Positions 3,658 through 25,099 of a stretch of 64,000 nucleotides of DNA are shown here, piece by piece (the stretch's first letter is position 1; every line of letters begins with the position of its first letter). Both the position numbers and the translations under genes were made by a program. Below the pieces are notes generated by a model. That model saw nothing but the letters and a program-made list of their open reading frames with translations, made no database searches and was not told the DNA's origin. The DNA is taken from assembly GCA_041660065.1 (NCBI GenBank), contig JBAZXC010000003.1, positions 1,495-65,494 on the forward strand, written 5' to 3'. This DNA is from Parcubacteria group bacterium. GTDB taxonomy: Bacteria; Patescibacteriota; Minisyncoccia; Moranbacterales; GCA-2747515.

Positions 3658-3667
3658 TAGTTGTTGA

Positions 3668-3757
3668 ATATTTAAAAATTTAATCAAAAAATTTTTTTGA
3701 TTAAAAATTGGATATTCCGCGATAGCTCTCCGCCAGCTGGCGGAGGTAGAGCAGTTG
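3668..3757 (+). repeat. unit 2: AT-rich palindromic leader (3668-3715) plus tRNA-Asn 5'-half copy with a 14-bp palindrome (CCGCCAGCTGGCGG) inserted in the D-loop (3716-3757)
   Basis: Near-identical to 4050-4125, the leader plus 5' half of the real tRNA, except for the D-loop insertion. It diverges after 'gagcagttg'. Confidence 0.6.
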
Positions 3758-3761
3758 CCAT

Positions 3762-4010
3762 ATGTTTTACGTCTATTGCATTTATAATAAAAAGAATAAT
3801 AAAATCTATATCGGACAAACAAAAGATCTTGAGAATAGATTAGAGTTACATAACCAGAAAACGTTTAAAGGTTTTACTTCTCGTTTTGATGGTGAGTGGG
3901 TTCTGATCTACTCTGAAGAAGTTGAATCTCGCACAGATGCTCTGAATAGAGAGAAACAACTAAAAAGTTTTAGGGGTAGAGAGTTTGTTAAAGAACATAT
4001 TCCGCGATAG
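3762..4010 (+). CDS. small stand-alone GIY-YIG nuclease (YhbQ/UPF0213-like, 82 aa)
   Basis: GIY-YIG signature 'YVYCIYNKKNNKIYIGQTKDLENRLELHN' and a conserved downstream R/E. The ATG lies in 'ccATATG' directly after tRNA-like fragment A. The last codons 'IPR*' are encoded by the next tRNA-like fragment (attccgcgaTAG). Confidence 0.75.
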   Translation: MFYVYCIYNKKNNKIYIGQTKDLENRLELHNQKTFKGFTSRFDGEWVLIYSEEVESRTDALNREKQLKSFRGREFVKEHIPR

Positions 4011-4038
4011 CTCTCCGCCAGCTGGCGGAGGTAGAGCA
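4001..4038 (+). repeat. unit 3 fragment: tRNA-Asn 5'-half copy with the same D-loop palindrome, truncated after 'gtagagca'
   Basis: Identical to 3716-3750. It overlaps the GIY-YIG stop codon. Confidence 0.6.
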
Positions 4039-4098
4039 TAAAGATGTTGAATGTTTAAAAATTTGATCAAAAAGAGCTTTTGGTCAAAAATTGAATAT

Positions 4099-4170
4099 TC
4101 CGCGATAGCTCAGCGGTAGAGCAGTTGACTGTTAATCAATTGGTCATAGGTTCGAATCCTATTCGCGGAG
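4099..4170 (+). tRNA. tRNA-Asn (anticodon GTT)
   Basis: Manual fold: acceptor tccgcga/tcgcgga, D-arm gctc-agcggta-gagc, anticodon stem gttga/tcaat with loop ctGTTaa, T-arm atagg-ttcgaat-cctat, discriminator g. No encoded CCA. Confidence 0.85.
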
Positions 4171-5760
4171 CATCATTGGAGAACTGGAGAATAAAACCTC
4201 CAGTTCTTCTTTATTTATCGGCAAATCGGGAGGTTCGAACCTCCCGATAATTGACTGAGACGCTTTTGATAATTTTTGGCATGCCAGAATTGGATTTTTG
4301 GCTTCAACATTGAACAATTTGTTAATAATGGTGAGGTTCGAACCTAAATTCGCAAGTATCTGTTTTTTTGTCTTATCATCTCCATCCTTAAATCTTCTTG
4401 CGATATCTTCTGAAACATCCAACGCTTTTTCTAGGCGATCCAGCCAAGTTTCTGTTTGGGTCGGCATGTCTTTTATAGCGCTCTTGAAATTTTCTTTTTC
4501 TTTCGTTATCTCTGTCTTTTTGGCTGCAAATTCTGCCTCAGAAATTTCATTATTGAGCCTCATGTCCATCAACCTGCTTAACTTCTTGTCAGCGGTCTCA
4601 ACGGCTGTAATTTGGCCGTCCAAGATTCTCTTGTCTGCTGCCAATTCTTCAGAATATCTATCTCTTAGATAGCGCACCGCCCAATCCTTAAAGCCTGGCG
4701 GAACATCCATGTTTTCTATGAAATCCATAATTTGACCCTCGAGCTTTTTTTCTTCCACTACTTTTCTTTCCGGACAGTTAGGATCTTTCCTCCGGGTGCA
4801 GTGGTAATAGGTGTAAAAATGCACGTTTCCATTTTTGTTCCTTTTGGTTTTGTGTTCAGCAGTTATCATTGCCTTACATTTGCCACACTGTATCACCCCA
4901 GTGTAGGCAAAGGTGTATTTTTGGGGTCGGGTAGTGCCTTTCTTTCCAAGTATGGCTTGGATTTTCAGAAATTCTGTTTGTGAGATCATCGCATTGTGTT
5001 TTCCCTCAAACCATTTGCCACTGCCTTTGGGATATTCGAATGTTCCCTGATAAAAAGAATTGTTTAACATGGCATACCAAGAACTAATTGATATTTTCCC
5101 TCCATTCTTGTTTGTTAAACCAAATTTAGTTGTAGCAATCCTAAAAGCATCAGCAGGAGTTTCTTTAAAGGTCGCAATCGATTTGAAAGCTTTGCGTATT
5201 ATATCAAATTTGTCAGGGTCATTGATGACTTCCTTTTTGCCTTTATCTTTTTTCGGAGCGGGAAGATATCCAAGCGGAGGAGAATAAGGACACCATCCGC
5301 TTTCAGCTTTGGTACGCAGTCCTCTTTTTGTATCTATGCTTAGGTCGCGAATAAACTGGTTGGCCATTCCTTGCTCGACCGCCATTACCAATACATTATC
5401 TTCCGGGTAGTAGCTTCTTTCAAAAGTGAGAATGTGTTTGAGTTTTTCCGATTGGAGCATCCAGCTTATCCGACCGCTGTCGATTGGATTCCGTGAGAGC
5501 CGATTCATCTTCCAGCATATGATCCCATCGGCTTCGCCTTTTTCTATTCTGGTCATCATTTTACTAAACATTGGTCGACCTGGGGCTTTAGCCGACATGG
5601 ATTCGGTAAATGTTTCCACTATTTCTACGCCATGTCTTTCGGCAAGTTTGTCTAGTTCCTCTATTTGGGATTCTATGGATTGCACTTGGCGATCCTCGCT
5701 TTCAGAAGATTTGCGAGCATACACAAAGTATTTGATTGATTGAGCATTTTTTTGATACAT
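4159..5760 (-). CDS. large serine recombinase (resolvase/invertase-type catalytic domain, recombinase domain, Cys-rich zinc-ribbon region, coiled-coil tail)
   Basis: N-terminal 'YARKSSESEDRQVQSIESQ' with the catalytic Ser context, then 'GVEIVETFTESMSAKAPGRPMFSKMM...GIICWKMNRLSRN'. Cys cluster 'CGKCKAMITAEH...YYHCTRRKDPNCP'. The 3' end overlaps the tRNA-Asn 3' end by 12 nt. Confidence 0.8.
   Translation of the reverse strand: MYQKNAQSIKYFVYARKSSESEDRQVQSIESQIEELDKLAERHGVEIVETFTESMSAKAPGRPMFSKMMTRIEKGEADGIICWKMNRLSRNPIDSGRISWMLQSEKLKHILTFERSYYPEDNVLVMAVEQGMANQFIRDLSIDTKRGLRTKAESGWCPYSPPLGYLPAPKKDKGKKEVINDPDKFDIIRKAFKSIATFKETPADAFRIATTKFGLTNKNGGKISISSWYAMLNNSFYQGTFEYPKGSGKWFEGKHNAMISQTEFLKIQAILGKKGTTRPQKYTFAYTGVIQCGKCKAMITAEHKTKRNKNGNVHFYTYYHCTRRKDPNCPERKVVEEKKLEGQIMDFIENMDVPPGFKDWAVRYLRDRYSEELAADKRILDGQITAVETADKKLSRLMDMRLNNEISEAEFAAKKTEITKEKENFKSAIKDMPTQTETWLDRLEKALDVSEDIARRFKDGDDKTKKQILANLGSNLTIINKLFNVEAKNPILACQKLSKASQSIIGRFEPPDLPINKEELEVLFSSSPMMLRE
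4179..4216 (+). terminator. hairpin plus T-rich tract immediately 3' of tRNA-Asn
   Basis: The imperfect inverted repeat ggagaactggag...ctccagttcttc is followed by tttatttat. It lies inside the predicted 3' end of the minus-strand recombinase ORF. Confidence 0.45.
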
Positions 5761-6017: not shown

Positions 6018-7073
6018 TTATTTGGATTCTTTTGGGCGTATTAACTTTTGATTTCCTCGACCCTGCACCTCCTCAATAATGCCATCCTCGATAAGTGCAT
6101 TGATTGCCCAGCGCACTACTTTCATTCCAACATTGCTCTTTGTCTTGATTTCTTTGGTTAAATCTCCACGTAATATTCCCGCCGCATATCCTTGGAGGAC
6201 TACTGGTATAGCATCCTTTGCTTTTTTGTAGGCAGATTCTTTTTTTGAATCCAGTTTTCCTTTAAATTCAAACCACATATTATCTTCAGTCTCTATGATT
6301 TCTAAGGCAAATGAGCCTTCCTCTCGTGCGCATCTGCATTGGGCATGTTCAACAATAATCTTATTTTCATCATCAGGATCCTTTTTTATTGCTATATGCG
6401 AATCAACAGCGGCACTAATGTCTGATGATCCTCGCATCCTAACTGGAGCAGCGCTATTGTGAGCACCCTCTTTTCTTTCATGGTGCAGAATAATCACGGT
6501 AAGTTTGTTTTCGCACAAACGCTTAATCTGCGCAAAGACTTTTGCTATGTCTTTTGAGCTATTTTCCTCCAAATCATGTAAGCGCACCAATGAGTCCAAG
6601 ATAACCACCTTGGCCTCTCTTTCTTCGCATATTCCTATTAGACCGTCTATATGGTCGTCATTTGTTAGGGAAAATCCCTTTTGAGATATGAAAGATATTC
6701 CCAAATTTTCTATTGCTCCAAGTTTCTTTACTCTTTCTTTTATGAATCGTTCATGATTTTCTTCATCGACAATTATAATGCCGTTATTTTTGCAATCATA
6801 TTGCTCAAAAGCTTTCTTTCCCTGAGATATACAAAGTGCAAGATAAAGCGATATAAACGATTTATATGATTTTGGAGCCCCTGAAATTATAGTAATAGCT
6901 TCTGCTGGTATCAGTTTTTCGACTATCCATAATGGAGCTTCAAAGTTCTTTTCCAGTAAATTGTTTAGATACACTGGTTTAAAAAACTTATTATAATCAA
7001 ACTCCCCAAATTCATCGTATGCTTCAAAGTCTTTGGATATTTTTCGATCCCTAAATACTTTTGGTAATAACAT
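6018..7073 (-). CDS. RecA-like ATPase (AAA_25/RepA-DnaB-like, plasmid or phage replication-associated) with a C-terminal winged-helix-like tail
   Basis: Degenerate Walker A 'ISGAPKSYKS', Walker B-like 'KVVILDSL', 'LTVIILHHERKEG'. The C-terminal region resembles a GntR-like wHTH 'VVRWAINALIEDGII'. Confidence 0.55.
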   Translation of the reverse strand: MLLPKVFRDRKISKDFEAYDEFGEFDYNKFFKPVYLNNLLEKNFEAPLWIVEKLIPAEAITIISGAPKSYKSFISLYLALCISQGKKAFEQYDCKNNGIIIVDEENHERFIKERVKKLGAIENLGISFISQKGFSLTNDDHIDGLIGICEEREAKVVILDSLVRLHDLEENSSKDIAKVFAQIKRLCENKLTVIILHHERKEGAHNSAAPVRMRGSSDISAAVDSHIAIKKDPDDENKIIVEHAQCRCAREEGSFALEIIETEDNMWFEFKGKLDSKKESAYKKAKDAIPVVLQGYAAGILRGDLTKEIKTKSNVGMKVVRWAINALIEDGIIEEVQGRGNQKLIRPKESK

Positions 7074-8313: not shown

Positions 8314-8430
8314 GAACCCACAATCAAAAAATACTGAGGCATAACCTTGAGGTTTTTGTCCTATCACGCCCTTTAGCGGGCGGCTCGGCGCACATGATAG
8401 GACACCTCGGTGTTTCTTGATTGTGGGTTC
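8314..8430. repeat. about 117-nt nested inverted-repeat structure
   Basis: Outer 14-bp inverted repeat gaacccacaatcaa / ttgattgtgggttc and inner inverted repeat gtcctatca / tgataggac, with a GC-rich centre. It sits in a divergent intergenic region. Confidence 0.4.
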
Positions 8431-8501
8431 CGTCGGGTCGTCCACTCAAGCGGAACTTCTCGACGACTTATTTACTAAGTCGTTTTTTGTTATCCAAATT
8501 T

Positions 8502-8696
8502 ATGGAAAAGCCAAATGAAAAATCTTTTTTCAGACAGGCACTTGAGTTTGCAGGTGTTTATATTTTGAGTATGTTTCTTGTTTTATTTGCCTTCGGACAT
8601 TCTCCGAGTAATCAAATTCGGTTTTATTTTTCTTCCCTGATGGTCGCAATGGCTATATTCACTGCATACGAAGTCGGGAAAAGTAAGGCGGTGTAG
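8502..8696 (+). CDS. small membrane protein (about 65 aa, 2 predicted TM)
   Basis: Hydrophobic segments 'VYILSMFLVLFAF' and 'LMVAMAIFTAY'. The start was chosen at the internal Met, since the longer track ORF overlaps the hairpin. Confidence 0.35.
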   Translation: MEKPNEKSFFRQALEFAGVYILSMFLVLFAFGHSPSNQIRFYFSSLMVAMAIFTAYEVGKSKAV

Positions 8697-8719
8697 TTAA
8701 TTATGTAATTTTAATAAGC

Positions 8720-8869
8720 ATGAAAAATATACTTATATTGATATTTTTCGCAGTCGTGGTCTTTTTAGAAGTTAGAAACAAAAAGATGAAGGACTATGGC
8801 GTTAAAGAGGTAGGTTTAATTATATTAACTGCGTTAATAGCATTTGGTTTTATAAGAGTGCTTTTTTAA
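8720..8869 (+). CDS. small membrane protein (50 aa), not in the ORF track because it is under 60 aa
   Basis: Manual translation gives MKNILILIFFAVVVFLEVRNKKMKDYGVKEVGLIILTALIAFGFIRVLF, two hydrophobic stretches. It lies in the same orientation between two other tiny TM ORFs. Confidence 0.3.
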   Translation: MKNILILIFFAVVVFLEVRNKKMKDYGVKEVGLIILTALIAFGFIRVLF

Positions 8870-8892
8870 TTAGCCACTAGAGAAATTAAAAA

Positions 8893-9075
8893 ATGAAATT
8901 TTTACTTTTCGTATTCAATTTAATAGCAGTTATTTATCTGATGTCCTTTATAAATATAAACAGCGACATCTTTGGTATGGCTATTATTTGGAGTATTGCT
9001 TTTGGAGTGCTTCTTTTTCTGAATGTTCTTATGTTTATTTGTTATAGATATTTGAAGAGATTTTGCAACAAATAA
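8893..9075 (+). CDS. small membrane protein (60 aa, 2 TM)
   Basis: MKFLLFVFNLIAVIYLMSF...IIWSIAFGVLLFLNVLMFICY. Confidence 0.35.
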   Translation: MKFLLFVFNLIAVIYLMSFININSDIFGMAIIWSIAFGVLLFLNVLMFICYRYLKRFCNK

Positions 9076-9220
9076 ACTGCTATGCTTTATAAAATTTGCA
9101 ATAGTGATAGACTGGTTATGAGACCAGTTTTTTAAATAAGAGTGGCCTAGAATTCCTTACAAACACTTATATAAGGGTCGATGATTTAAAAAGCAATTGA
9201 ATTAAGAGAAGAAAAGTTAT

Positions 9221-12200
9221 ATGACAAATACCAATCGCACAAGCTCAATTAGAAGCGGTTTTGCCTACCAGAATTTCTGGGGTTTAAGGCTGTGCGGAGA
9301 ATGGTTGGCTAGTCCAGAGCAGTACAAATGGATTCAATTTGAAACATGTCCTGATGAAAAAGATCCAAATAAATTCTATTTGGACGACATTGTTTGTCTT
9401 GATTCAGATAACTTATGGCATTTGTATCAAACTAAATATAGACAGGATTGCACTAATAAGTGGACCTGGGATAATTTTTTAAATGCGGAACGGAGTGGCG
9501 GAACTTCACTTATAAGAAAATGGGCAAATTCTTTAGCTAATCGTCTCGACAAAACCAAGGCGGCATTTTTTATAACAAATGGTGATTCTGAAGATTGCAT
9601 TAGCAAATATATATACGATGAATTGCTTAATATCGAAGAAATAAAGAAAAAGGACCCCGCTCTTTATGATCGAATTGTTGTAGAAATAGGAATCGAGAAT
9701 GATGTTGATTGTATTTTTCAAACACTTCGTTTTCAATTCAATCAAGAAAATCTGTCATCTGATGAATTAGAAAAAAACATACGAAAATATTATTATGAAA
9801 AACTTAATGCGACTGAGTCCGGTGTTACTAATTTATATCATGAAATAGACAAGGAGTGCAGGCAAAAGAATACTCAACAACTAAGCATCGAGCTACTTCG
9901 TAAGTGGTGTGAATTTGATACGCCTCGGTCACTGGATGAACAGTTTGATATTCCGACTGATTTTGAATTTTTTGATGATAAAACTCATCAGTCTATCCTA
10001 AATGATCTAGGGAAAACAGAGGGCGGTATCCGAGTAATTTTTGGTAATCCAGGTGTTGGCAAGAGCGTATATTTATCAAAGCTTTCTGATGAGCTGGGTG
10101 AGAAAAAAATAATTTCAATCAAGCATCATTACCACATTTCACCAGAAGATTCTAATCCCCAAGAGCGCTTGAACGCGAAGCGAGTAATTGAGGCCATAAA
10201 GTCACAATTAAAGTCTCACAAGGAAGCTCTTGGTGATTTGGCGAATAAGGACTCAAGAAAAATACCAGTTGGAGAGTTTATTACAAAAATAGGCACGAAA
10301 CTCAATGGAAATAACAAAACTCTCGTTATAATTATTGATGGACTTGATCATGTTTTGCGCTATGGTGAAAAGGAAGAATTAGAGAGTTTTTTAAGAGAAA
10401 TATGCGTACCGCAGCCTGGAGTTTGGATAGTTATTGGTATGCAATTAATTGCTAAGTCGCATTTGCCTCAAGTGGTTTTTGATAAGTTTCCAGAGAACAA
10501 ATGGATGGAAATAAAGGGATTGAGCAAGGAAGCTGTCTCAAGGGTTATCCAAAAAAACAACATAAAGTTACATCTACCAGATCAAGCAGAGCTACTCAAG
10601 AGTTTAGTGGAAAAGTTATTTTCAATCACAGATGGTAATCCATTGCATTTGCGTTATAGTTTGCAGCAATTAAAAAATATATCTGGGAATAGTATCGTTA
10701 CGGAATATTCCTGCAACGATCTCATATCGTATGGAGATGGTATAGAAAAGTATTATGATTCTCTCTGGAATCATATTTCAGATAACGCAAAATCACTCCT
10801 GCTTACAATGGCTAGTGTTAATTTTCTTTTTACGGAGCAGCAACTTATTGAATGCATTTCTTTTTTTGTGACCGATTCTAAGGATGTAACAGATGGGTTT
10901 AATCAAATCTCACATTTAATTTCAAAAAATATACGCGGGCAGATGAGCGTATTTCATAACAGTTTCGAATTATTTTTGAGGAATCGGAAGGAAATGACAC
11001 AGCAAAAAATTGTTATAAAAACAAATATTAAGAAATGGCTGGAGCAATCTAATTATGAATATCTAAAATGGGCAGAATTAAGGATAATTGAGCATGAACT
11101 TGGAAATAGTGAACGGATTCTTGAAATAGATAGAGAGTGGCTTATAGATGCTATTTGCTATCCATGCAATACTGCTCAAATTTCTAAGCAAATGAAATTA
11201 GCTGTCAGAGTGAATCTTGAAAAAGAAGACTTTGGAGCGGCATTGCAAATTTCTTATTTGCATACTTACTATATAAATTCCAAAGATTTTGCAGAGGAGA
11301 CTCCCGAATTAATTTTCGAAGAAGCACTTTGTCTGAAGCAAAATATCTTTGAATATATTGATTTTAAATCATTACCAACAACGCTGTTTTCTGTTGTTGC
11401 AGAAATGGCAGATTCCAACGGAAATAATCTTGCAGCAGAGGAAGCTAAAGACGAGTTAATCGAGCGCTTAAGTCGGCAAGAATATCGTAAGAATGAAATT
11501 CCTCGAGTAACGGGTGTATTTCTAGATGTCATTCCTTTTGATAGAGCTCATAAATTAGTCAAAGTTTATAAATATATAGTTCAATTTAGAAATCTAGATG
11601 TAACAGGTGAATTATTTAAAATTTATTCTCGTAGACTATTGGAATTAGGTCAAAAAAACAAAGTGCTTGAGTTACTAAAACTTAAGCTCAATGATATTGA
11701 GAAGAGAGCTGTTTTAGCGGAATGTGCTGTACATGGATTTAAGAATAGGACCGAAGATTGCTCCATCTATTTTAATGAGGAACAAAATTTAACGCCACTT
11801 TGCTTGCTGTATAAATCAATAAGGAATGAGAAATTTAATCTTCCTGCTCTTCCAAAATATGATATTTTTCCTGAAACAATTCGTGAGCATGATCCCGAAG
11901 AGCGAAAAAAATGGAGTGAATTTTATTATCATAATTTTATTGTTGGATTGTTATATGGTTTTTCTGACAATAAAAAAGATATAGAAAAATGGATTGCTAA
12001 TATTCCTGATGCATGGCCAGCTAAGGCAGTAGCCGCCTTATTTGTTGCAAGTTTAAAAGTTAGTGACGGCATTAAAAACTGTAAATTTGAATATGTAGAT
12101 TTATTCAATTCATTGGTTGACTTGCAAGCTCTGAAGTGGCCCGAAGATCGGGATGTTTTAAACTTTCAGACTGCATTCAGTGACGCTATTAGCGAAATAT

Positions 12201-15200
12201 TTGAAATCGTTATTTATATTAAGGGATACATTGGAGACAATCAAGAAATTACTCTGTCTGATTATATAATGATCACTGGTAGCACAAGTTTCTTAAATGA
12301 AAATAATCTGACGGCGTTAGTTCTAAAAATATACAGGCCACTATTTTCACGTGAGGTATATGAAAAAATAAAAAATAAAAATATATACGGACTTCGTGAT
12401 ACCGTAGATCAGTTTCCCATTAGGGCTAGAGAATACGGCGTCATCTCAAAACTTGCTAGATTGTATGAAGATTTAAAATTATCAAAAGAGGTCCTGAAGA
12501 AAGCGGCGGATAATCTTCTTGGCTATGGTGACCATAAAGACGTCTATTTGTTTGATGTGCTTGAAGTAATAGAGTTTTGTGCACAAGCTGGGGTTGGTCA
12601 AGAAAAAATTAATGAATGGATTTTAAAAACTATTCCATTGATAGAAAATGTCGGAAAATATACCGATGGAGATGAAACACATGCCCTACCTATCGAACTT
12701 GCAGATGTTTTAGCTAAATATAATCCCGGGCTATTGCGTAAGTATTATTATTGGTCTGCTGATCAGGAGAATCTTTATCACGCTGAAGACTTATTTGAGT
12801 GTGTATTGACCTCTCTTGTGTTTAAAAGTGAAGAGGAGATTGCCTTAGCAAAGACTGTTGTTGAAAAAGATTCTTTTTTGAAGCTTAAAGCAACTGCAGT
12901 GAATAATCTCGGCGCCTCAGAGGCTTTGAATGACACGCAGGCTTATCTTGGTGAAATTAGTTTTCCTGAAGAAAAACAAAGTCCTTATACCGGCTCAGGC
13001 AAGCCCGTATATAACTATTCAGAGATTAATCCTGATAAATTAGTAGACCACATTAGCAATAATTTTGAGAATAAATGGGAGCGAAATAGCTATTTAGAGG
13101 GATGGTTTATTTATTGGTTGGAAAAAAATAATAAAGCCAAAATATATGACATTTTCAAAAATGTTATTGACAAATTTGGCGTTCAATCTGTATCAGGAGA
13201 GATTCTTGATATAGCATACCCTCTAGCGTATGAATTTGATAATGAAGCCGCTTTTGATATTGTATGCAAAGCTCAATCAAAGGATAATGGATGGCAAGGA
13301 TATTGGACTGACAAGAAAAAATCTGAAAAAAGATGGCAGTTTATTAAAGAAAAGTACCCGCAACGATATGTAGATTTTTTTCAGAAGAGCACTAATGGCT
13401 ATATTCCATTATCAAGAGGGGTTGAATACTTTCTTTTATTCAATGATTTAAAGCGGGCCGAAGAAATAGTGGAGGCAAGTATCCAGTTTGCAAAATCCTT
13501 GATGGCAAATAGCAATCTGCCATCGCCAGCATGGCTGGAGGAAAAAGAAATTGACGCGCTTGATATTTTAATTCAGCGATTAATTTGGCCTAGTCCATTA
13601 GTCCGAGAAAGAGCTGCCACTGCCTTAGCGAGCTTGCTTTGTTCGAGTAAGAAAAAATTGAATATCTTTAACCATCTGTTGCTCTGGCTTAAACAACAAA
13701 AGATAGAATCTGTAGCAGCAATTGGACTTCTTCCTATCATCAAAACTTTTTATATATGTAAAGACACTAAAGATTTAAAATACATCAACATTGACGATGT
13801 AGCCTCTTCAATGTCAGTAAGTTCCGAAGTTATAGAAGCATTATTTAAGGAGCTTTCAGATTTAAAAAACAAGCCAACGCCAAATTTAAAGCCCTTTAAA
13901 AATATTAAGGAATTTGGAGATGGTTATATTCCAAGTAGCTTCTTCTCTAAACATGTGCAAACATTTCTTGCACCTATTTATATGGATAGGGCAAAAAATA
14001 TTGAAAGGCGATCAGGGAAAAGCTTTATCAAACAATGGGCGTTTATTTCAGATGAGATAATAAAGGATTTAGGAATAGAGCCTAACCATGACCATGTTTA
14101 TTATTATGGTCGCAGTCAACAAGGTGAATTTTTACTTGGTTTTTCCACAAAAATAAGTGAAGTATATAGATCAGCATTTTTAAGAGCTATACAATATTTT
14201 TACCAAAATGGAGATATCGAGAAAGATTTTTATTTGGAATATGCTTATGCGACGCTGCCTATAGAATTATCCAAATGGAAAATTTTACCAAATCGTGCGC
14301 CAGAATGGTGGCCGCAGATCGCATCCAAAAGTAGGGAAGACGATAATGAAGATACTTCTTTGGAGAGTATTTCTTTTAAGAAAGCTCCGGAGGATTTGAT
14401 TAATAATCAGGATGATAAATTAATAATTGCAGCTGAGGGTGCTATCAAGCCAGATAATGGCTGGAAAAATGATCCAGAACATTCATTTAAGTTGATCGCC
14501 TTTGGCTACAGAGCTGTAGGTCCAGAAGTGCCAACCCCGGATGAGGTTTCAGATAGAATTTCTTATGCTTCTCCTGGTTTGATTACTATCCCCTCAAGAA
14601 CACACAAGCCCTTTAATTTCTTAGAAGATAAGGAAAATCATTTACCAGTTAGGCATGAGCCATTCCGAATCAAGGATATTGTAATCTATCCTATCATAGC
14701 CAGGGAACGCGATCTTTCCATTGCCCTTTGGCAATATTTCAGAGATTATAATGTACCATTCAATTTAAACCTCCCACTTTCACAAGAGCTTAAGCTCGTT
14801 TTACAAAAAAATAGCTGGCAGCTGGAGGATAAAAATGGTAAAGCTGTGGTCATGCATAGTGATTGGCTTGAGGGATTAAAGGAGAGATACAATCGAGATA
14901 TGCCCATACCGCATGGTCAGTTTCTGATAGTGGAACAAAGCTTCTTAGATGATTGCTTGGGCAAAGATATTAAGATTGGATATATGCTGAAAACTACCTA
15001 TAGGACAAGGAAGCACAGCTATGATGAGGTTGAAAAGGATAGTAAGATTAAATTAATAAATGTTATTGGTATACCCGAAAAGCCCAAGGGGTATGATTTA
15101 AATGAAATTGAAGAAAGGAACGCTGCATTAAATAAATATCTCGAAAACATTACTGATGAAGAGCTTCTGGAAAAAAGTGAAAAAGAGACAGCCCAAACCG

Positions 15201-16009
15201 AATTGGATTTTCAAGCGCTAAAAGAAGCACTTAAAAATAATAAGTGCAGCTTATGTGGTAATTCAATCTCTCAGTTCTCTGAAAAAAAGCCTTGCCTTCA
15301 TTGGCTATTGAAGCCCAATGGTTTCAAAAAAAAGCATTTTCCATTATTATTTGAAAAATATAATTTTCATAGAATGGAGGCTTATCTTCGGTGGGTGGCA
15401 AATACTGATGTGCCATTAAAAAATATAAATGATCTTGTTGAGGAAAAAACATCTTCAAAGAAAATTGAGTTAACAATTCGGTATAAAAACTTAGAATGGT
15501 CTTTTTCATGTGCAGAATCTGACTTTAGCGGACATCAAGATAGTCATGAAGGAAAAATGCCACACTATCATTTTCAAATGAAATTAGATGACAGAGTTAT
15601 TATAAATTATGGAGGTTTTCATATTCCGTTCCACGATGAGGATTTTTTTGGTTTTTCTATAAGCGAAGGAAAGATACCAAGGCTCGGCTACAAGCATATA
15701 CATGGGGCAGGGATGCAGGAATTATTAGATAACTTTTCTCCAGATGAGCTTTTGGATCAAATGATTAGGGCTGAAAACTATGATGATGCTCAATTGCACA
15801 CGTCTACTTTGGTTGAAGCAGCCCCCGGAACAACCATATCGGGCACGGATATCGCAAATCTTTATAAAGAACATAAAGAAACAGGCATACCAATGGCTAA
15901 ATTAATCAAAAAATTGCCCAATGTAAAAGCAATGAGCGTGATATCTCCTGGTCCTGGTGTGCCAGATCTGGCTAAGCGCACGTCGCGTCGTCGTAAAGGC
16001 GATAAGTAG
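9221..16009 (+). CDS. giant (2262 aa) P-loop NTPase, NACHT/STAND-like, with an N-terminal about 260-aa domain of unknown type (possible nuclease-like effector), a very long helical middle and a C-terminal Cys/His-rich domain
   Basis: Walker A 'IRVIFGNPGVGKSVYLSKL' at about aa 275. Walker B 'KTLVIIIDGLDHV' (hhhhDGLD, NACHT-like) at about aa 370. N-terminal 'SGFAYQNFWGLRLCGEWL' and 'PDEKDP...LDDIVCLDSDN...YQTKY'. C-terminal 'CSLCGNSISQFSEKKPCLHWL...HQDSHEGKMPHYHFQ'. The uninterrupted 6.8-kb ORF is preceded by an SD-like 'agagaagaaaag'. Confidence 0.8.
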   Translation: MTNTNRTSSIRSGFAYQNFWGLRLCGEWLASPEQYKWIQFETCPDEKDPNKFYLDDIVCLDSDNLWHLYQTKYRQDCTNKWTWDNFLNAERSGGTSLIRKWANSLANRLDKTKAAFFITNGDSEDCISKYIYDELLNIEEIKKKDPALYDRIVVEIGIENDVDCIFQTLRFQFNQENLSSDELEKNIRKYYYEKLNATESGVTNLYHEIDKECRQKNTQQLSIELLRKWCEFDTPRSLDEQFDIPTDFEFFDDKTHQSILNDLGKTEGGIRVIFGNPGVGKSVYLSKLSDELGEKKIISIKHHYHISPEDSNPQERLNAKRVIEAIKSQLKSHKEALGDLANKDSRKIPVGEFITKIGTKLNGNNKTLVIIIDGLDHVLRYGEKEELESFLREICVPQPGVWIVIGMQLIAKSHLPQVVFDKFPENKWMEIKGLSKEAVSRVIQKNNIKLHLPDQAELLKSLVEKLFSITDGNPLHLRYSLQQLKNISGNSIVTEYSCNDLISYGDGIEKYYDSLWNHISDNAKSLLLTMASVNFLFTEQQLIECISFFVTDSKDVTDGFNQISHLISKNIRGQMSVFHNSFELFLRNRKEMTQQKIVIKTNIKKWLEQSNYEYLKWAELRIIEHELGNSERILEIDREWLIDAICYPCNTAQISKQMKLAVRVNLEKEDFGAALQISYLHTYYINSKDFAEETPELIFEEALCLKQNIFEYIDFKSLPTTLFSVVAEMADSNGNNLAAEEAKDELIERLSRQEYRKNEIPRVTGVFLDVIPFDRAHKLVKVYKYIVQFRNLDVTGELFKIYSRRLLELGQKNKVLELLKLKLNDIEKRAVLAECAVHGFKNRTEDCSIYFNEEQNLTPLCLLYKSIRNEKFNLPALPKYDIFPETIREHDPEERKKWSEFYYHNFIVGLLYGFSDNKKDIEKWIANIPDAWPAKAVAALFVASLKVSDGIKNCKFEYVDLFNSLVDLQALKWPEDRDVLNFQTAFSDAISEIFEIVIYIKGYIGDNQEITLSDYIMITGSTSFLNENNLTALVLKIYRPLFSREVYEKIKNKNIYGLRDTVDQFPIRAREYGVISKLARLYEDLKLSKEVLKKAADNLLGYGDHKDVYLFDVLEVIEFCAQAGVGQEKINEWILKTIPLIENVGKYTDGDETHALPIELADVLAKYNPGLLRKYYYWSADQENLYHAEDLFECVLTSLVFKSEEEIALAKTVVEKDSFLKLKATAVNNLGASEALNDTQAYLGEISFPEEKQSPYTGSGKPVYNYSEINPDKLVDHISNNFENKWERNSYLEGWFIYWLEKNNKAKIYDIFKNVIDKFGVQSVSGEILDIAYPLAYEFDNEAAFDIVCKAQSKDNGWQGYWTDKKKSEKRWQFIKEKYPQRYVDFFQKSTNGYIPLSRGVEYFLLFNDLKRAEEIVEASIQFAKSLMANSNLPSPAWLEEKEIDALDILIQRLIWPSPLVRERAATALASLLCSSKKKLNIFNHLLLWLKQQKIESVAAIGLLPIIKTFYICKDTKDLKYINIDDVASSMSVSSEVIEALFKELSDLKNKPTPNLKPFKNIKEFGDGYIPSSFFSKHVQTFLAPIYMDRAKNIERRSGKSFIKQWAFISDEIIKDLGIEPNHDHVYYYGRSQQGEFLLGFSTKISEVYRSAFLRAIQYFYQNGDIEKDFYLEYAYATLPIELSKWKILPNRAPEWWPQIASKSREDDNEDTSLESISFKKAPEDLINNQDDKLIIAAEGAIKPDNGWKNDPEHSFKLIAFGYRAVGPEVPTPDEVSDRISYASPGLITIPSRTHKPFNFLEDKENHLPVRHEPFRIKDIVIYPIIARERDLSIALWQYFRDYNVPFNLNLPLSQELKLVLQKNSWQLEDKNGKAVVMHSDWLEGLKERYNRDMPIPHGQFLIVEQSFLDDCLGKDIKIGYMLKTTYRTRKHSYDEVEKDSKIKLINVIGIPEKPKGYDLNEIEERNAALNKYLENITDEELLEKSEKETAQTELDFQALKEALKNNKCSLCGNSISQFSEKKPCLHWLLKPNGFKKKHFPLLFEKYNFHRMEAYLRWVANTDVPLKNINDLVEEKTSSKKIELTIRYKNLEWSFSCAESDFSGHQDSHEGKMPHYHFQMKLDDRVIINYGGFHIPFHDEDFFGFSISEGKIPRLGYKHIHGAGMQELLDNFSPDELLDQMIRAENYDDAQLHTSTLVEAAPGTTISGTDIANLYKEHKETGIPMAKLIKKLPNVKAMSVISPGPGVPDLAKRTSRRRKGDK

Positions 16010-16087
16010 TCGCACTCTTGATTAAAAGTGCACACAAGCCCAAACAAAGGCCTAGTCTTGTCTTTTATGCTCAAGCACGGGACTATT

Positions 16088-17608
16088 TTATTTTTTCAAT
16101 AAGGTTCTGACTTCTTCCATAACGTGGAGCAATTTTCCAGTTTTCTGGTAAGCAATGACCCCTGCAAAGGGGTTTTTTGTTTCAAATACTAAAATTTTTC
16201 CTTGTAACGAAAAGTTCTGAAATACGAAATTGATGAGTTGTGTTTTCTCCTCTGGTTCCGCAACTTGAAAAATCTCCCATGACTTCTGAGATAAGTCTAT
16301 AATAGTACCAGCTGTAATATAGAAGTTCTGGTTTGCTTTGCTATGATCTTCTAATTGCTCCATTAAGTCCTGTTCTTGTAATTTATAGTCATTGCAGCGC
16401 TTATCATAATCTTCAGTTGTTATACGTCCATCCAATCGATCCTCGTACATCACTTTATATCGATTTCGGATTTTACTGAGCTTATGCTCTAATGTATTTT
16501 TATTTTGTATAAAGTATTCTTGCTCTGAATCGTGAATTCGTCGCATTTCGGTAGTTAGTTTATCCAAGGATTTTTTTGTGAGTTTCATATTTTGAAACTC
16601 TTGTTTGATTTGCAAAATCAAATCTTTTTCTCGTATCCAAACAACGTTTGTGCAATTTCCATGGTAATTTGTACAATGATAGTAAATGTATTTTCCCTTC
16701 TTAATTTCTGGAGAAATTGCGCATCCACATTCTGCGCATTTTACAAGTCCCCGAAAAATGTATGGCTTGTTGGTTCGCTTGTAGTTTTGTTTGTTATATC
16801 CAGCAATGACTTTTTGAACTTTTTCAAAAAGATGTCTCGGGACGACCGTGTCATATCTATGTTTGTAAATTTTTCCATTATAAAGCATTTCCCCGTGATA
16901 GAATGAATCTTTGAGTATCTTGTGAATTTGACTGGCTGTAACTGGTTTATTGCTTGGATAATTTGTAAGACCTCTCTTATTCATTTCTTTTGCAAGTGAT
17001 TTTGCAGAATATCCGCCAGCGGCATAAAGTTCAAATGCTTTTAGAATATAGTGACTGCGCTCTTCGTCAATAACAATATCTTTTTTACCATCACTCAATG
17101 TGATATTTTTGTATCCAATGTGAGCTTTCCCAGGCAGCTCACCGTTGTTTAGTTTTTCTCGTAAACTACGCTTTACGTTATCGCCAAGTTGTAGGACATA
17201 ACTTCTTGCAAACATTACTCCCATATCCCAACGCAATAGGTCCGCGCTGTTTGAATCTTTGTTGAGAATGAGGTTTTCACGTAAAAAATGCAATTCCAAT
17301 TTTTCTTGTTTGCGAAAATCATCCAAAATAACAGATTCCTTGAAGCCTCTTTGTAAGCGATCAATGGTATCAGTGATCAATGCAATTGGTTCTTTGGATT
17401 TTTTGATGATCTCAATGATGCTGGAAAATTCGTTGCGAACATCCTTTGTTGATGATTCTGTAATCTCAAACACTTCATCAACAAGAAGATTTCTATATTC
17501 GCAATATTCTCTCATACGACGAACTTGTGATGGTATTGATTGCCCCTCTTCCATTTGCTCTTTTGTGGATACACGAGCAAGTATCAATGCTTTCATAAAT
17601 TTTTTCAT
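16088..17608 (-). CDS. large serine recombinase (second copy, different sequence from 4159-5760)
   Basis: N-terminal 'ALILARVSTKEQMEEGQSIPSQ' with the catalytic Ser context, then 'IALITDTIDRLQRGFKESV'. Zinc ribbon 'CAECGCAISPEIKKGKYIYYHCTNYHGNC'. Confidence 0.8.
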   Translation of the reverse strand: MKKFMKALILARVSTKEQMEEGQSIPSQVRRMREYCEYRNLLVDEVFEITESSTKDVRNEFSSIIEIIKKSKEPIALITDTIDRLQRGFKESVILDDFRKQEKLELHFLRENLILNKDSNSADLLRWDMGVMFARSYVLQLGDNVKRSLREKLNNGELPGKAHIGYKNITLSDGKKDIVIDEERSHYILKAFELYAAGGYSAKSLAKEMNKRGLTNYPSNKPVTASQIHKILKDSFYHGEMLYNGKIYKHRYDTVVPRHLFEKVQKVIAGYNKQNYKRTNKPYIFRGLVKCAECGCAISPEIKKGKYIYYHCTNYHGNCTNVVWIREKDLILQIKQEFQNMKLTKKSLDKLTTEMRRIHDSEQEYFIQNKNTLEHKLSKIRNRYKVMYEDRLDGRITTEDYDKRCNDYKLQEQDLMEQLEDHSKANQNFYITAGTIIDLSQKSWEIFQVAEPEEKTQLINFVFQNFSLQGKILVFETKNPFAGVIAYQKTGKLLHVMEEVRTLLKK

Positions 17609-17764: not shown

Positions 17765-18844
17765 CTATTTTATGAGCAATGCATTTCTCACTGCTTTGCC
17801 GAGTTCCTCATTTGATATGTTTATACTCAGTCCATTATTTTTCAGATTTTTCATAGCTTTTACCCGTTCAACGGCCTCAATGGGGGTTAGGGAGCCGTAG
17901 CCGTATGAGCCAAATGTTGTACCGATATGTTCATGTCCAAGTACGAGGCTGATAGCGCGCTTATCCGCTTCAGTCAATCCGAGTTCACTCATAAATGCAA
18001 CAGCGGAATGGCGAAATGAATGAGGATTGTAATAGGGAACATTTGCTTCCTTGCATCTCTCTTGTATGATTTTTCGCGCAGGGTTTGATGATTGCCAAAA
18101 TTCATCCGAGACTTTTTTGAGTGAGAAATCTTGTGTTGCTGGGAATATTGGCTTTTTGCTCCCAAAGCCCTTTTCTTCTGTAAGATAGGAATACCATTCA
18201 AGAAAAATTCTCTCACCATCATCCCAGCCAATGGGAAAAAATGTTGATATAATTTTTTTTGAGTTTTTTGTCTTGACGCCCATTGCGGGGCTCTGTTCGA
18301 TGTGGAGTTTGTGTTTGTCAAATGCTTGCATAGGTAGAGATACAACGGCACTGATGCGCATGCCTGTCAAGATGAGGAATGCAATCATTGCTCTATCGCG
18401 CAGGGCAACCTCGTGATTTCCCGAGATGCTCTGGACAATTGATTTGATTTCCTCAAGTGTTGGAATATCTTTTTCCGTTTTTTCAAGTGCGATGCTCGTT
18501 TCTTTCTTTGAAAGGCGCAGGTAGTCAAGGTCCGTTTTCTTGATTTTATCATAGAATGGTTGATCACTAAGCCATAAAAAGAAGCGTTTAGTGTGTCTGA
18601 GAATGTCATATTGATTTGAGAGTGAAGTGTTATTCTTATCAGCCTCTCGCTTGAGGTATTTTTTGAACTCATCACATAAATCCCGATCAAACTCTGCAAA
18701 ATCAGAATTTTCAAAACACACTTGCCACTTGTAGATGCACTGCGCGTATTTATTGATCGTGCTTTCTGCAAAGCCTTTTGCGCTACGACAATGATTGAAA
18801 TATTCACGTTTTGCCGCCTCATTCTTTATGATCGAATTGGTCAT
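17765..18844 (-). CDS. tyrosine-type site-specific integrase/recombinase
   Basis: C-terminal catalytic region 'HSFRHSAVAFMSELG...LVLGHEHIGTTFGSYGY' with the R..H..R..Y pattern. N-terminal SAM-like DNA-binding region. Confidence 0.85.
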   Translation of the reverse strand: MTNSIIKNEAAKREYFNHCRSAKGFAESTINKYAQCIYKWQVCFENSDFAEFDRDLCDEFKKYLKREADKNNTSLSNQYDILRHTKRFFLWLSDQPFYDKIKKTDLDYLRLSKKETSIALEKTEKDIPTLEEIKSIVQSISGNHEVALRDRAMIAFLILTGMRISAVVSLPMQAFDKHKLHIEQSPAMGVKTKNSKKIISTFFPIGWDDGERIFLEWYSYLTEEKGFGSKKPIFPATQDFSLKKVSDEFWQSSNPARKIIQERCKEANVPYYNPHSFRHSAVAFMSELGLTEADKRAISLVLGHEHIGTTFGSYGYGSLTPIEAVERVKAMKNLKNNGLSINISNEELGKAVRNALLIK

Positions 18845-18912: not shown

Positions 18913-19296
18913 TTATGGCGAACGTATTTGGACGTTTGCCTTTCCGATTGTTTTACAGATATGAGAACCACATTTTTTGCACAATGAATGACGAATATTG
19001 CCAACTGCACGGATGTTTTTTTCTTTTGCTTTGACACCTTTTTTGCACTTGAAACATGGATAGCTTCCTCCTGACATATTCCATTTGCGCGTTTTGATTT
19101 TATTATGCAGATAGTCAGCAACAGCGTCTCCCATAAAAAAATATGGTTTTGAGCCTGGATTATAAGGCGCAAGACCATCTGCAATCCAGCGTTCTACTGT
19201 TTTGCGAGTTTTGTCGCAGATAAACGCCACGTCATCGATGGTGTATGATTGGTATTTACTAAATCTATTCTTTTTTGATGTAGTTATTTTTTTCAT
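18913..19296 (-). CDS. excisionase-like HTH DNA-binding protein with a C-terminal zinc ribbon
   Basis: 'YTIDDVAFICDKTRKTVERWIADGL' is an HTH of the MerR/Xis type. 'CFKCKKG...CKKCGSHIC' is the zinc ribbon. It is adjacent to the integrase. Confidence 0.5.
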   Translation of the reverse strand: MKKITTSKKNRFSKYQSYTIDDVAFICDKTRKTVERWIADGLAPYNPGSKPYFFMGDAVADYLHNKIKTRKWNMSGGSYPCFKCKKGVKAKEKNIRAVGNIRHSLCKKCGSHICKTIGKANVQIRSP

Positions 19297-21608: not shown

Positions 21609-22520
21609 GTGATGAATAATAGAAAAAATAAGAAAAAAATAGGTGAGAATTATACTTTTATAGATTTGTTTGCTGGGATAGGGGGATTTCACCAGGCTTT
21701 TCATAATATCGGAGCTGAGTGTGTGTTTTCTTCAGAATGGGATGAAAATGCCAGAAAAACGTACGAACTCAATTTCAAAAAGATTTCTCCAAATCTTTTT
21801 GAAAAAAATAAATTTATAGGGGATATAAACTCAATCAAAAACATCAAAAAGGAGATTCCTGATTTTGACATTTTGACGGGAGGATTTCCTTGCCAGCCCT
21901 TTAGTCACGCTGGACACAGAAAGGGTTTTTTGGATACCAGAGGCACTTTATTTTTCAATATAGTCGAAATATTGAGACAAAAAAAACCAAAAGCGTTTTT
22001 TATAGAAAATGTCAGGGGATTATTGAATCATGATGATGGCAATACTTTTTCAGTAATCAAAAAAACAATAGAAGAAGAACTGAACTATTCTTTTTATCCT
22101 GAGATTATTAGAGCCTCCGATTTTGGTTTGCCCCAGCATAGACCTCGTTTATTTATGGTTGGCTTCAAAAATAAAAAGATAGAATTTGAGTTTCCAGATC
22201 CAGTTGGCTTGAAAATGAACATGTCTGACATATGGGGAGGAAAATGCAGTAGAGATGTGGGATTTACTCTCAGATGCGGTGGTAGGGGGTCTGGTTTGAA
22301 TGACAGGAGAAATTGGGACACATATTTGGTTGACGGTAAAGAAAGAAGATTGTCTTCTGCGGAGGGGAAAAAAATGATGGGATTTCCGAAAGGTTTCAAA
22401 TTTCCAGTTTCTGAAACCCAAGCAATGAGGCAGCTTGGGAATGCTGTAGCTGTGCCAGCCATTCAAGCTGTTGCACAGGCAATAATTGAATCATTGAACT
22501 CTTATGATAAAAGGAAATAA
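21609..22520 (+). CDS. DNA (cytosine-5)-methyltransferase with a short target-recognition region
   Basis: Motif I 'FIDLFAGIGGFHQAF', motif IV 'GGFPCQPFSHAG', motif VI 'ENVRGLL', motif X 'RQLGNAVAVP'. Confidence 0.85.
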   Translation: MMNNRKNKKKIGENYTFIDLFAGIGGFHQAFHNIGAECVFSSEWDENARKTYELNFKKISPNLFEKNKFIGDINSIKNIKKEIPDFDILTGGFPCQPFSHAGHRKGFLDTRGTLFFNIVEILRQKKPKAFFIENVRGLLNHDDGNTFSVIKKTIEEELNYSFYPEIIRASDFGLPQHRPRLFMVGFKNKKIEFEFPDPVGLKMNMSDIWGGKCSRDVGFTLRCGGRGSGLNDRRNWDTYLVDGKERRLSSAEGKKMMGFPKGFKFPVSETQAMRQLGNAVAVPAIQAVAQAIIESLNSYDKRK

Positions 22521-23586
22521 AGGAGAATGGAGTGAATTTTATGCTTTTCTCAAAATATTGACTGATGGCAAAATGTTTACTGCAGATAAAGATCTCGAAA
22601 TATTGAGAGATAATTATTATATTGTTTTGAAAATTATTAGAGAGGAAACTAATGGGAAGAAATCTTATGATATTTCTAAGCGGGATGGCAAAGTTGTGAT
22701 TTTTGATGAAATGATGAAATTGAGTGATGTTGTTGATTTGGAAAAAATAAAAAAAAGAGTTGCGGATATTTTTGATGAAATGAGAAAAGCGAAAGGATCT
22801 ACTTTCCAGATATTACTTGCTGAAGAGGCTATGAGGGATTTGCATTGTTCCCAGATAAAAGCATCAAGCGGACGAAAGGCGGACTTAATGATTGTTTTGC
22901 ACGACAAAAAATCACCAGCCTTTCCTGAATTGGGGTTTAGCGTGAAATCCATGCTCGGATCACCATCAACACTTTTGAATGCCTCAGGGGCGACAAATTT
23001 CGTCTATAAGGTTGCTGAAAGCGGCAAGTCTGATGAAGAGCTTGATGTGTGTAACAAATCGCTTACAGTTCGAGATAGGGCCGAATTTATCTATGATGCA
23101 GGTGGCCGTTTTGAATATTGTGGGATGGACAGTGCTAAATTTAGAAAAAACCTTAGAAAGATTGATTCGAATTTTCCAGAAATAATTGCAGAAATTGTAA
23201 GGCATTACTATGGTGGCAGGGGAAATAGCATTTCTGATTTGGTTGATCATATTTCGAAGGATGTTGATTTTTGCAAAAAGCTTGATTTAGACAAAAGTGA
23301 CTTTATTTTTAAGGTAAAGAGATTTTTATCAGATGTTGCTTTGGGCATGACTCCAAGCAGAGAATGGGATGGACATGCCAGTGCACACGGTGGATACATA
23401 ATTGTAAAAGAAAATGGAGAAATAATCTGTTATCATATCTACAATCGAGACGAATTTGAGGACTATCTTTATAATAATACAAAGCTGGATACTCCAAGTA
23501 CGACACGACATAAATTTGGCGACGTTTATGATGAAAATGGAGAGAAAAAAATCAAATATAATTTGCAGATTAGATTTATAAAATAA
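22504..23586 (+). CDS. probable type II restriction endonuclease partnered with the C5-MTase
   Basis: Its start overlaps the MTase 3' end by 17 nt, and it is followed immediately by vsr. No catalytic motif was confidently identified, so the call rests on context. Confidence 0.5.
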   Translation: MIKGNKGEWSEFYAFLKILTDGKMFTADKDLEILRDNYYIVLKIIREETNGKKSYDISKRDGKVVIFDEMMKLSDVVDLEKIKKRVADIFDEMRKAKGSTFQILLAEEAMRDLHCSQIKASSGRKADLMIVLHDKKSPAFPELGFSVKSMLGSPSTLLNASGATNFVYKVAESGKSDEELDVCNKSLTVRDRAEFIYDAGGRFEYCGMDSAKFRKNLRKIDSNFPEIIAEIVRHYYGGRGNSISDLVDHISKDVDFCKKLDLDKSDFIFKVKRFLSDVALGMTPSREWDGHASAHGGYIIVKENGEIICYHIYNRDEFEDYLYNNTKLDTPSTTRHKFGDVYDENGEKKIKYNLQIRFIK

Positions 23587-23590
23587 GCAA

Positions 23591-24019
23591 ATGGTAGATA
23601 TTTTTTCAAAAGAAAAAAGGTCCGAAATAATGTCGAAAATAAGATCAAAAGAAACCAAAATGGAGGTAAAATTCAGAAAAAAACTTTGGCATTCTGGATT
23701 TCGATATCGAAAGAACGCGTCTGGTTATTTTGGAAAACCAGATATTTTACTTAAAAAATATAGAACAGTTATTTTCATCGATTCTTGTTTCTGGCATGGA
23801 TGCAAAAAACATTTCAAACTTCCTTCAACAAGACAGAAATTTTGGAGTGAAAAGATGGTACAAAACCAAAAAAGAGATAAGGACGTTACAGGTTATTATA
23901 AAAAAAATGGTTGGAAAATTATCCGAATTTGGGAGCATGATTTGAAGAGGAATTTTCAGAAATCGTTTGACAAAACTAGTTATTTATTATTGAAAGATGA
24001 AAGTGCACGAATAAAGTAA
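23591..24019 (+). CDS. vsr: very-short-patch repair endonuclease Vsr
   Basis: 'FRYRKNASGYFGKPDILLKKYRTVIFIDSCFWHGC' is the Vsr signature, including the FxDGCFWHG-like block. Confidence 0.8.
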   Translation: MVDIFSKEKRSEIMSKIRSKETKMEVKFRKKLWHSGFRYRKNASGYFGKPDILLKKYRTVIFIDSCFWHGCKKHFKLPSTRQKFWSEKMVQNQKRDKDVTGYYKKNGWKIIRIWEHDLKRNFQKSFDKTSYLLLKDESARIK

Positions 24020-24108: not shown

Positions 24109-24606
24109 ATGGCTACAAAATACTTAAGGGCTATCGAGGTGGCGGAGTATTTTATCGCAAGAGCGTGTAAGGAAGGGGATGAAATGACGCCAAAAAAATT
24201 ACAAAAGATGCTTTATTATGCTCAAGCGTGGTTTTTGGTTTTTGAAAACAGGAGGCTTTTTGATGACAAAATAGAGGCGTGGATGCATGGACCGGCGATC
24301 TACTCCATTTATCAAGAGTATAAGATGTTCGGTTTTTTTCCAATTAGAAAGGAAATTGATAAGGATTTTTTGGATAAAATATCAGATAATACGAAGAGGT
24401 TTTTATCGGATATTTGGAAAGTGTATGGAAAATATGATGCTGATTATTTAGAAATCTTATCACATAACGAAAAACCTTGGCGTGTTGCACGCGCTGGAGT
24501 TGGCGAGTTCAATGCTTCAAAAAATGAGATTGATACAAAATTGATGAAAAGTTTTTATAAAGAACTGCTTGCTAAAACAACGGATGATGTCCAAGAATCG
24601 AAATAA
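24109..24606 (+). CDS. Panacea-domain (DUF4065, SocA/PanA-like) putative antitoxin
   Basis: 'KLQKMLYYAQAWFLVFENRRLFDDKIEAWMHGPAIYSIYQEY' matches the DUF4065 core pattern. Confidence 0.65.
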   Translation: MATKYLRAIEVAEYFIARACKEGDEMTPKKLQKMLYYAQAWFLVFENRRLFDDKIEAWMHGPAIYSIYQEYKMFGFFPIRKEIDKDFLDKISDNTKRFLSDIWKVYGKYDADYLEILSHNEKPWRVARAGVGEFNASKNEIDTKLMKSFYKELLAKTTDDVQESK

Positions 24607-25099
24607 CAAAAGAAAACAGGAGAGAAGACTTCAAAAAAAGAAGTCTTCTTTGATAGAGTGCGTTGTTGGTGTACAACGAGATGATGTAAATGAGGGTAGA
24701 GTTCCTGAAAGTGTTGCCAGTATGGGTGATGTATTTGATGATAGTGAAGTTTATTCTATAAGTTTTTCTCAATATGCCAGTAATGAATGTGAGATAGACG
24801 CAATGATTAGCAATGGAGATAAATGTTCAGGTCGAGCATTGCAACTATTGAAACTGATTGGATCGCACTGTAGCAACCTTAGGACGCTTAAACATCTTGG
24901 TTTTGAAACAAAAAAGATTGCAAACGATAATCAGTATAAAAGGTTATATAATAAACTGAAAATGTGCGGTGTGGACATAAAGGAAACTACGATTTATGAA
25001 TCATACATTTCAAATCAAGGTGGTAGAATATTTTTTTGGGTGTATGGACAAAAAAAGATGATATATATTGTTGCTATACGAAGAAATCACTACAAATAA
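24569..25099 (+). CDS. putative toxin partner, with a RelE/ParE/Gp49-like C-terminus; the true start probably lies further in (Met at 24722 or 24803)
   Basis: C-terminal 'GGRIFFWVYGQKKMIYIVAIRRNHYK' resembles the RelE/HigB/Gp49 C-terminal beta-strands. It overlaps the Panacea gene's end. Confidence 0.35.
   Translation: MLKQRMMSKNRNNKRKQERRLQKKKSSLIECVVGVQRDDVNEGRVPESVASMGDVFDDSEVYSISFSQYASNECEIDAMISNGDKCSGRALQLLKLIGSHCSNLRTLKHLGFETKKIANDNQYKRLYNKLKMCGVDIKETTIYESYISNQGGRIFFWVYGQKKMIYIVAIRRNHYK

Follow-up and report, generated by a model that had tools for sequence, protein, structure and literature searches.

Closest described systems

Among the closest described systems are the antiviral STAND (Avs) proteins, some of which have been experimentally validated in a layout that combines a Cap4 nuclease, a STAND NTPase, and a large sensor (Lee et al., Nature 2026; PMC13581612). 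In SeAvs7 and other Cap4-bearing Avs proteins, binding of a conserved phage protein to the sensor leads the Cap4 effector to assemble into an active oligomer; in Avs7 this sensor is a bilobed tetratricopeptide repeat domain shared with Dsr1 (PMC13581612). A second reference point is the bacterial NACHT (bNACHT) proteins, whose signature is D[GAS]hDE (Kibby et al., bioRxiv 10.1101/2022.07.19.500537). Here, we describe an open reading frame (ORF) of 2262 codons at positions 9221..16009 (+ strand) of a 64,000-nt stretch, hereafter the window, from a Parcubacteria-group metagenome-assembled genome (MAG; GCA_041660065.1, contig JBAZXC010000003.1). A prediction made from the sequence alone had presented this ORF as a giant single-gene NACHT/STAND defense protein.

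In our reading, to which we assign a probability of about 70%, the ORF comprises two co-oriented, overlapping genes of a tRNA-Asn island that became one reading frame when a single G was lost. The first (gene 1) would encode a very divergent Avs3-like antiviral STAND protein acting by a mechanism of the SeAvs3/SeAvs7 kind, and the second (gene 2) a member of a separate 305-aa family. Gene 1 proper encodes ~1961 aa and is of no unusual size: SeAvs3 from Salmonella enterica (AVAST type 3; PDB 8DGC) has 2028 aa, and the earlier impression of a protein larger than most described members does not hold. The two folds are similar, with no detectable sequence similarity and 10% identity in the structural alignment. 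Gene 1 differs from SeAvs3 in an NTPase that scores as NACHT/NPHP3_N, in an extra beta-rich terminal domain, and in its host, a member of the candidate phyla radiation (CPR). As in SeAvs7 and other Cap4-bearing Avs proteins, a Cap4 effector is encoded within a single gene located in a defense island.

A probable one-base fusion of two genes

As assembled, the composite ORF starts with ATG, is unbroken over its 6.8 kb, and is deposited as MFA5986505.1 ("MAG: ATP-binding protein [Parcubacteria group bacterium]"). It contains every motif on which the original prediction was built, namely SGFAYQNFW (aa 12-20), LDDIVCLD (54-61), YQTKY (69-73), the Walker A sequence GNPGVGKS (275-282), the Walker B sequence IIIDGLDHV (370-378), CSLCGN (2009-2014), PCLHW (2024-2028), and PHYHFQ (2114-2119). 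An ORF of 2262 codons cannot have arisen by chance in DNA of 35% GC. In a search of 5.8 billion proteins, the exact 2262-aa protein had a single match, MFA5986505.1 itself, encoded on a 99.7-kb contig of the Parcubacteria-group MAG, and the junction is known from this one assembly only.

The same search separated the two halves. The STAND relatives among the matches listed (at least 120) are 31-66% identical to the query; those of full length comprise 1926-1988 aa, are collinear from residue 1, and end at query residue 1948-1956. When the last 311 residues were used as a separate query, 684 proteins were matched, all of them stand-alone and 246-339 aa long, the closest with 84% identity across 98% of the query. 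These stand-alone proteins start with MD(L/W/I)xEIExRN, which aligns exactly with Y1958-DLNEIEERN of the query.

DNA alignments placed the junction at 15074..15106 (+). The STAND relatives terminate with KLLNVSNIII-stop, and at the same point the query runs on into the linker PEKPKG, which is followed by TATGATTTAAATGA; the relatives read ATGGAT where the window reads GGGTATGATTTAAATGAA. A G is absent at 15093-15096, and it is because this one base is missing relative to all relatives that the two frames read as a single ORF. Re-insertion of one G in silico after the ATG at 15093-15095 yields two ORFs, a 1961-aa STAND gene ending in ...KPKGYGFK-TGA and a 305-aa gene starting with MDLNEIEERN. 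The two overlap by 14 nt, with the TGA of the former lying 14 nt past the ATG of the latter.

No second instance of the fusion was found. In a profile search of 1.84 billion cluster representatives, the best 150 of the 389 clusters of the small family were all at most 336 aa long; the fusion was likewise absent among the at least 120 listed homologs, and 0 of 84 other STAND-family loci had a 305-aa gene either downstream or fused. Both halves retain every residue that is invariant in their families, with dN/dS values of 0.07-0.10 relative to their nearest relatives. Most economically, two overlapping neighbor genes were run together by a 1-nt deletion, whether a genuine one or an error of the assembly. 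The C-terminal Cys/His block, formerly assigned to the STAND protein, thus lies in a separate family (aa 1958-2262) joined by a 1-nt frameshift. The traits that had made the "giant" exceptional, i.e., its size, the Cys/His block, a non-canonical effector, and transmembrane (TM) partners, are either products of the fusion or unsupported. For genome scans in general, a "record-size" protein may prove to be a one-base fusion of neighbors.

Gene 1, a Cap4-NACHT STAND protein

The N-terminus of gene 1 is a Cap4-type dsDNA nuclease domain (aa 11-216; 9251..9868, +). The Pfam model PF14130 (Cap4_nuclease) matches this segment from profile position 7 to 199 of 200 (E-value 9.9e-5); its 23.1 bits fall just below the cut-off of 26.2, and precomputed annotation records PF14130 on roughly half of the at least 120 listed relatives. 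Residues G13, D55, D56, Q70, and K72 are invariant in the family and therefore indicate the D...QxK form of a PD-(D/E)xK site. Judged by sequence, the domain is the known Cap4/DUF4297 nuclease of PD-(D/E)xK type; such an effector had been anticipated as non-canonical, and it is instead a canonical one. Homology with the Cap4 protein of the cyclic-oligonucleotide-based antiphage signaling system (PF14130/DUF4297) covers nearly the whole profile and includes the D...QxK residues. Unlike that Cap4, the nuclease of gene 1 is joined to a STAND NTPase rather than to a SAVED cyclic-oligonucleotide sensor, and its score falls slightly under the Pfam cut-off.

The NACHT/STAND NTPase follows at aa 250-477 (9968..10651, +), with Walker A at 10043-10066 and Walker B (DGLDH) at 10328-10354. 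Three Pfam models exceeded their gathering cut-offs at aa 250-445: NPHP3_N (PF24883) with 32.8 bits (cut-off 24.8), AAA_22 with 31.2 bits, and NACHT (PF05729) with 29.7 bits (cut-off 26.7). The proposal of a STAND/NACHT NTPase in an effector-NTPase-sensor layout was correct. The Walker A residues P277, G280, K281, and S282 are invariant across 56 relatives, as are D373-G374-L375-D376 of Walker B, and the fifth position, where D[GAS]hDE has Glu, is a nearly invariant His377. Gene 1 shares with the bNACHT proteins of Kibby et al. a NACHT domain above the cut-off, a D-G-h-D Walker B, an N-terminal nuclease, and a repeat sensor of the "antigen-receptor type", but its signature ends in His rather than Glu, and it matches neither the NCBIfam EruA model nor the PADLOC models. 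Against the PADLOC defense models, no Avs match was obtained and the only hit was mad8 on the P-loop (E 0.0099). The NCBIfam model Avs1b matched the NTPase part alone (E 1.5e-9; 35.6 bits versus a cut-off of 1500 bits).

Downstream of the NTPase, a putative winged-helix/helical linker that is conserved across the family extends over aa 478-751 (10652..11473, +) and weakly matches HTH_TANC1 at aa 538-596 (E 0.033). It leads into an alpha-helical solenoid sensor at aa 752-1686 (11474..14278, +), and a beta-rich domain at aa ~1719-1946 (14375..15058, +) forms the true C-terminus of the family. Of the ~1600 aa once described as mostly helical, the part up to aa ~1686 is indeed a helical solenoid, and the beta-rich domain is the part that departs from this description. 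The large C-terminal sensor has the Avs3 fold; no PDB chain was matched by phmmer or hmmsearch with the STAND protein. The family of gene 1 is best described as very divergent Avs3-like antiviral STAND proteins, invisible to sequence models.

Two motifs within the solenoid, GYGxHKD (aa 1101-1107) and YTDGDET (aa 1147-1153), are invariant and include D1107, T1148, and D1149 (window 12521-12679). Conservation this strict is unusual for a repeat that binds a ligand, and the motifs might belong to a metal or nucleotide site.

With SeAvs3 and SeAvs7 as the template (PMC13581612), a mechanism can be proposed by analogy. A conserved phage protein would be the ligand of the gene 1 sensor (~1300 aa, alpha-solenoid plus beta domain); the fold match with the Avs3 sensor points to the large-terminase type as the most likely. 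Binding would relieve autoinhibition and allow the NTP-bound NTPase to oligomerize. The Cap4 domains might then come together as an active dsDNA nuclease, and the resulting degradation of DNA would abort the infection.

Patescibacteria (CPR), whose genomes are tiny, are commonly described as poor in defenses. The CPR bacterium examined here appears to spend ~6 kb on an Avs3-like sensor-nuclease unseen by sequence models, and its relatives extend the Avs3 architecture to a family of more than 130 metagenomic members missed by annotation of the PADLOC or NCBIfam type.

Gene 2 and the 305-aa family

Gene 2, complete except for Met1, occupies 15092..16009 (+; aa 1958-2262 of the composite ORF). 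It aligns end to end with a family of ~295-313 aa proteins that start with MDxxEIExRN, is 84% identical to the member P0121, and keeps all invariant residues. These comprise C52, C55, C68, and H70 (CxxC...CxH) and H158, H160, H177, and D184 (PHYHFQ ... FHxPFxDxD). The protein features a coiled-coil hairpin, the CxxC...CxH zinc knuckle, a beta sheet bearing PHYHFQ / FHxPFxDxD, an alpha/beta C-terminal domain, and a basic tail.

No model from Pfam, PHROG, PADLOC, or NCBIfam matched the family, and its confidently predicted fold has no relative in the PDB or BFVD. Searches of plasmids and phage genomes gave no match, and 13 IMG/VR contigs carry the family. Its distribution is sporadic and includes Patescibacteria, many Proteobacteria (Enterobacter, Pseudomonas, Acinetobacter, Marinobacter, Psychrobacter), Bacteroidota, Nitrospirota, and others. 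The upstream gene lies on the same strand at 63 of 82 loci, and in 23 of these 63 the gap is at most 40 nt. Gene 2 looks like an island or defense-associated cargo gene that is usually placed directly downstream of another gene.

Members of the family were found near pattern-recognition defense genes of unrelated families in five lineages, including the window with its overlap or fusion. At locus L154 (1-3307), the 305-aa gene is divergent to a second Cap4-NACHT family member, 59% identical to the STAND protein of the window. In Psychrobacter (L076, 5096-10858; also L085 and L185), it lies beside a 1617-aa Mrr-NACHT gene with a gap of 18 nt. In Denitrovibrio (L061, 4776-10867), it occurs near Avs2 (1113 bits in PADLOC); the one gene between them encodes a 315-aa TM protein and overlaps Avs2 by 4 nt. 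Finally, a CPR operon (L003, 4743-10918; also L004 and L007) encodes a 1176-aa protein resembling the Dsr1/Avs7 sensor, then two unknown genes, then the 305-aa gene. This placement is suggestive of a functional association with STAND/Avs sensors, and ordinary clustering in defense islands fits it equally well. The compact family, with its recurrence beside unrelated STAND/Avs sensors, is the more interesting lead to have come from the window.

Alternative explanations

The alternative that survives best, which we nevertheless consider unlikely, holds that the fusion is real and functional, i.e., a Rosetta-stone fusion in which the 305-aa module serves as an accessory sensor, regulator, or second effector of STAND/Avs proteins. 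The five-lineage recurrence and the same-strand, closely spaced upstream genes described above argue for it, as does a fused copy that keeps every invariant residue at a dN/dS of 0.10. Weighing against it, the majority of 305-aa loci have no STAND neighbor, many copies adjoin housekeeping genes (DnaK, ParC/GyrA, aconitase, RF3, GlnE, NorB), and no neighbor family is conserved around them. Conversely, 83 of 85 NACHT-family loci lack a 305-aa gene, and the fusion itself is missing from the representatives and homologs surveyed above. The Mrr-NACHT adjacency seen in Psychrobacter is gone in relatives of 73% and 56% identity, so the link to STAND genes is not obligate, and general defense-island clustering could account for the co-occurrence. 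A bolder version would make the 305-aa protein an unrecognized partner module of bacterial pattern-recognition receptors, captured independently by Cap4-NACHT (twice), Mrr-NACHT, Avs2, and the Dsr1/Avs7-sensor protein, with the window as a natural Rosetta stone for direct interaction; we regard it as rather doubtful. Should the link between the 305-aa family and STAND proteins prove functional, bacterial innate immunity would gain a new accessory component.

It is also conceivable, and in our estimation very unlikely, that the ~1950-aa STAND family is not anti-phage at all, acting instead as a maintenance or addiction protein of mobile elements or as a regulatory STAND protein that travels on islands. 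Serine recombinases (8 loci) and tyrosine integrases (8 loci) are frequent neighbors of the relatives, an IMG/VR contig carries one distant relative, and no curated defense model was matched, as such a role would allow. The combination of Cap4, STAND NTPase, and a large Avs3-like sensor is, by contrast, the layout of validated Avs proteins (PMC13581612). Moreover, the relatives adjoin type I restriction-modification genes (HsdM, Ymh, HsdS, HsdR, YgjP) at 9 loci, OLD+UvrD (Gabija-like) pairs at 3-4 loci, and Fic, and an OLD system is likewise among the neighbors. Known defense genes and mobile-element genes thus recur around both the window gene and its relatives.

That the ORF represents one giant NACHT protein of 2262 aa, ancestral and novel, with the Cys/His-rich C-terminus as an integral sensor or effector domain is next to impossible, since the one ORF of the assembled sequence is set against relatives that all end at aa ~1951, a C-terminal part that corresponds over its full length to an independent gene family whose start coincides with the junction, and the 1-nt indel signature found there.

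The tRNA-Asn island

On the reading of two merged genes, both belong to a low-GC island that begins at tRNA-Asn(GTT) (4099..4171, +) and extends to ~34 kb, where ornithine cyclodeaminase and RsgA resume. The composite ORF has a GC content of 0.353 and a GC3 of 0.298, versus 0.45 for the neighboring dnaG/rpoD. It lies 5 kb from the tRNA, flanked by two large serine recombinases. The first (4159..5760, -) overlaps the 3' end of the tRNA with its own 3' end, and the second (16088..17608, -) precedes a tyrosine integrase (17765-18844) and, after that, an HTH_17 excisionase-like gene (18913-19296). An AAA_25/primase-helicase-like ATPase of a mobile element is located at 6018..7073 (-). The original prediction had placed the gene between two recombinases near a tRNA, and these positions are correct. 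Because the recombinases are merely 23.5% identical and the second is accompanied by an integrase and an excisionase-like gene, tandem integrated elements are likelier than the single recombinase-bounded element envisaged.

The expected mobile, low-GC defense setting was confirmed. Beyond the second recombinase, a cluster of defense genes starts with an M.HpaII-like C5 methylase (21609-22520) and R.HpaII (22504-23586), to which Vsr (23591-24019) is added. A SocA/Panacea antitoxin gene (24109-24606) comes next; a 176-aa ORF at 24569-25099 may be its partner. An OLD-family ATPase of the OLD/AriA/GajA type completes the cluster (25125-27119; PADLOC Old 113 bits, AriA 104 bits, and many GajA matches). 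Upstream of the composite ORF, three small hydrophobic ORFs occur at 8421-8696, 8720-8869, and 8893-9075; their co-occurrence with homologs had been raised as a question, and they are not conserved beside the relatives.

A 169-aa ORF resembling P-loop kinases (32161-32670), close to the island's right end, weakly matches Zeta_toxin and CPT. In another genome (locus L001; GCA_963851915.1, CAWKSA010000005.1), a 62%-identical STAND relative lies between direct 1277-bp repeats of 96% identity, at 8512-9788 and 16069-17344. Each repeat encodes a 340-aa serine recombinase (98.5% aa identity), and a third, 517-aa paralog follows the next cargo gene; the locus is an array of recombinase-plus-cargo modules.

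Just outside the left edge of the window's island, a small GIY-YIG-like ORF (3762-4010, +; 82 aa, "...YIGQTKDLENRLELHNQ...") is enclosed by two identical 42-nt direct repeats (3712-3753 and 3997-4038), each a copy of the 5' half of tRNA-Asn in which an 18-nt palindrome (TCCGCCAGCTGGCGGAGG) occupies the D-loop position. The intact tRNA-Asn follows. The arrangement across 3659-4111 resembles a homing-type insertion in which the 5' end of the tRNA was duplicated.

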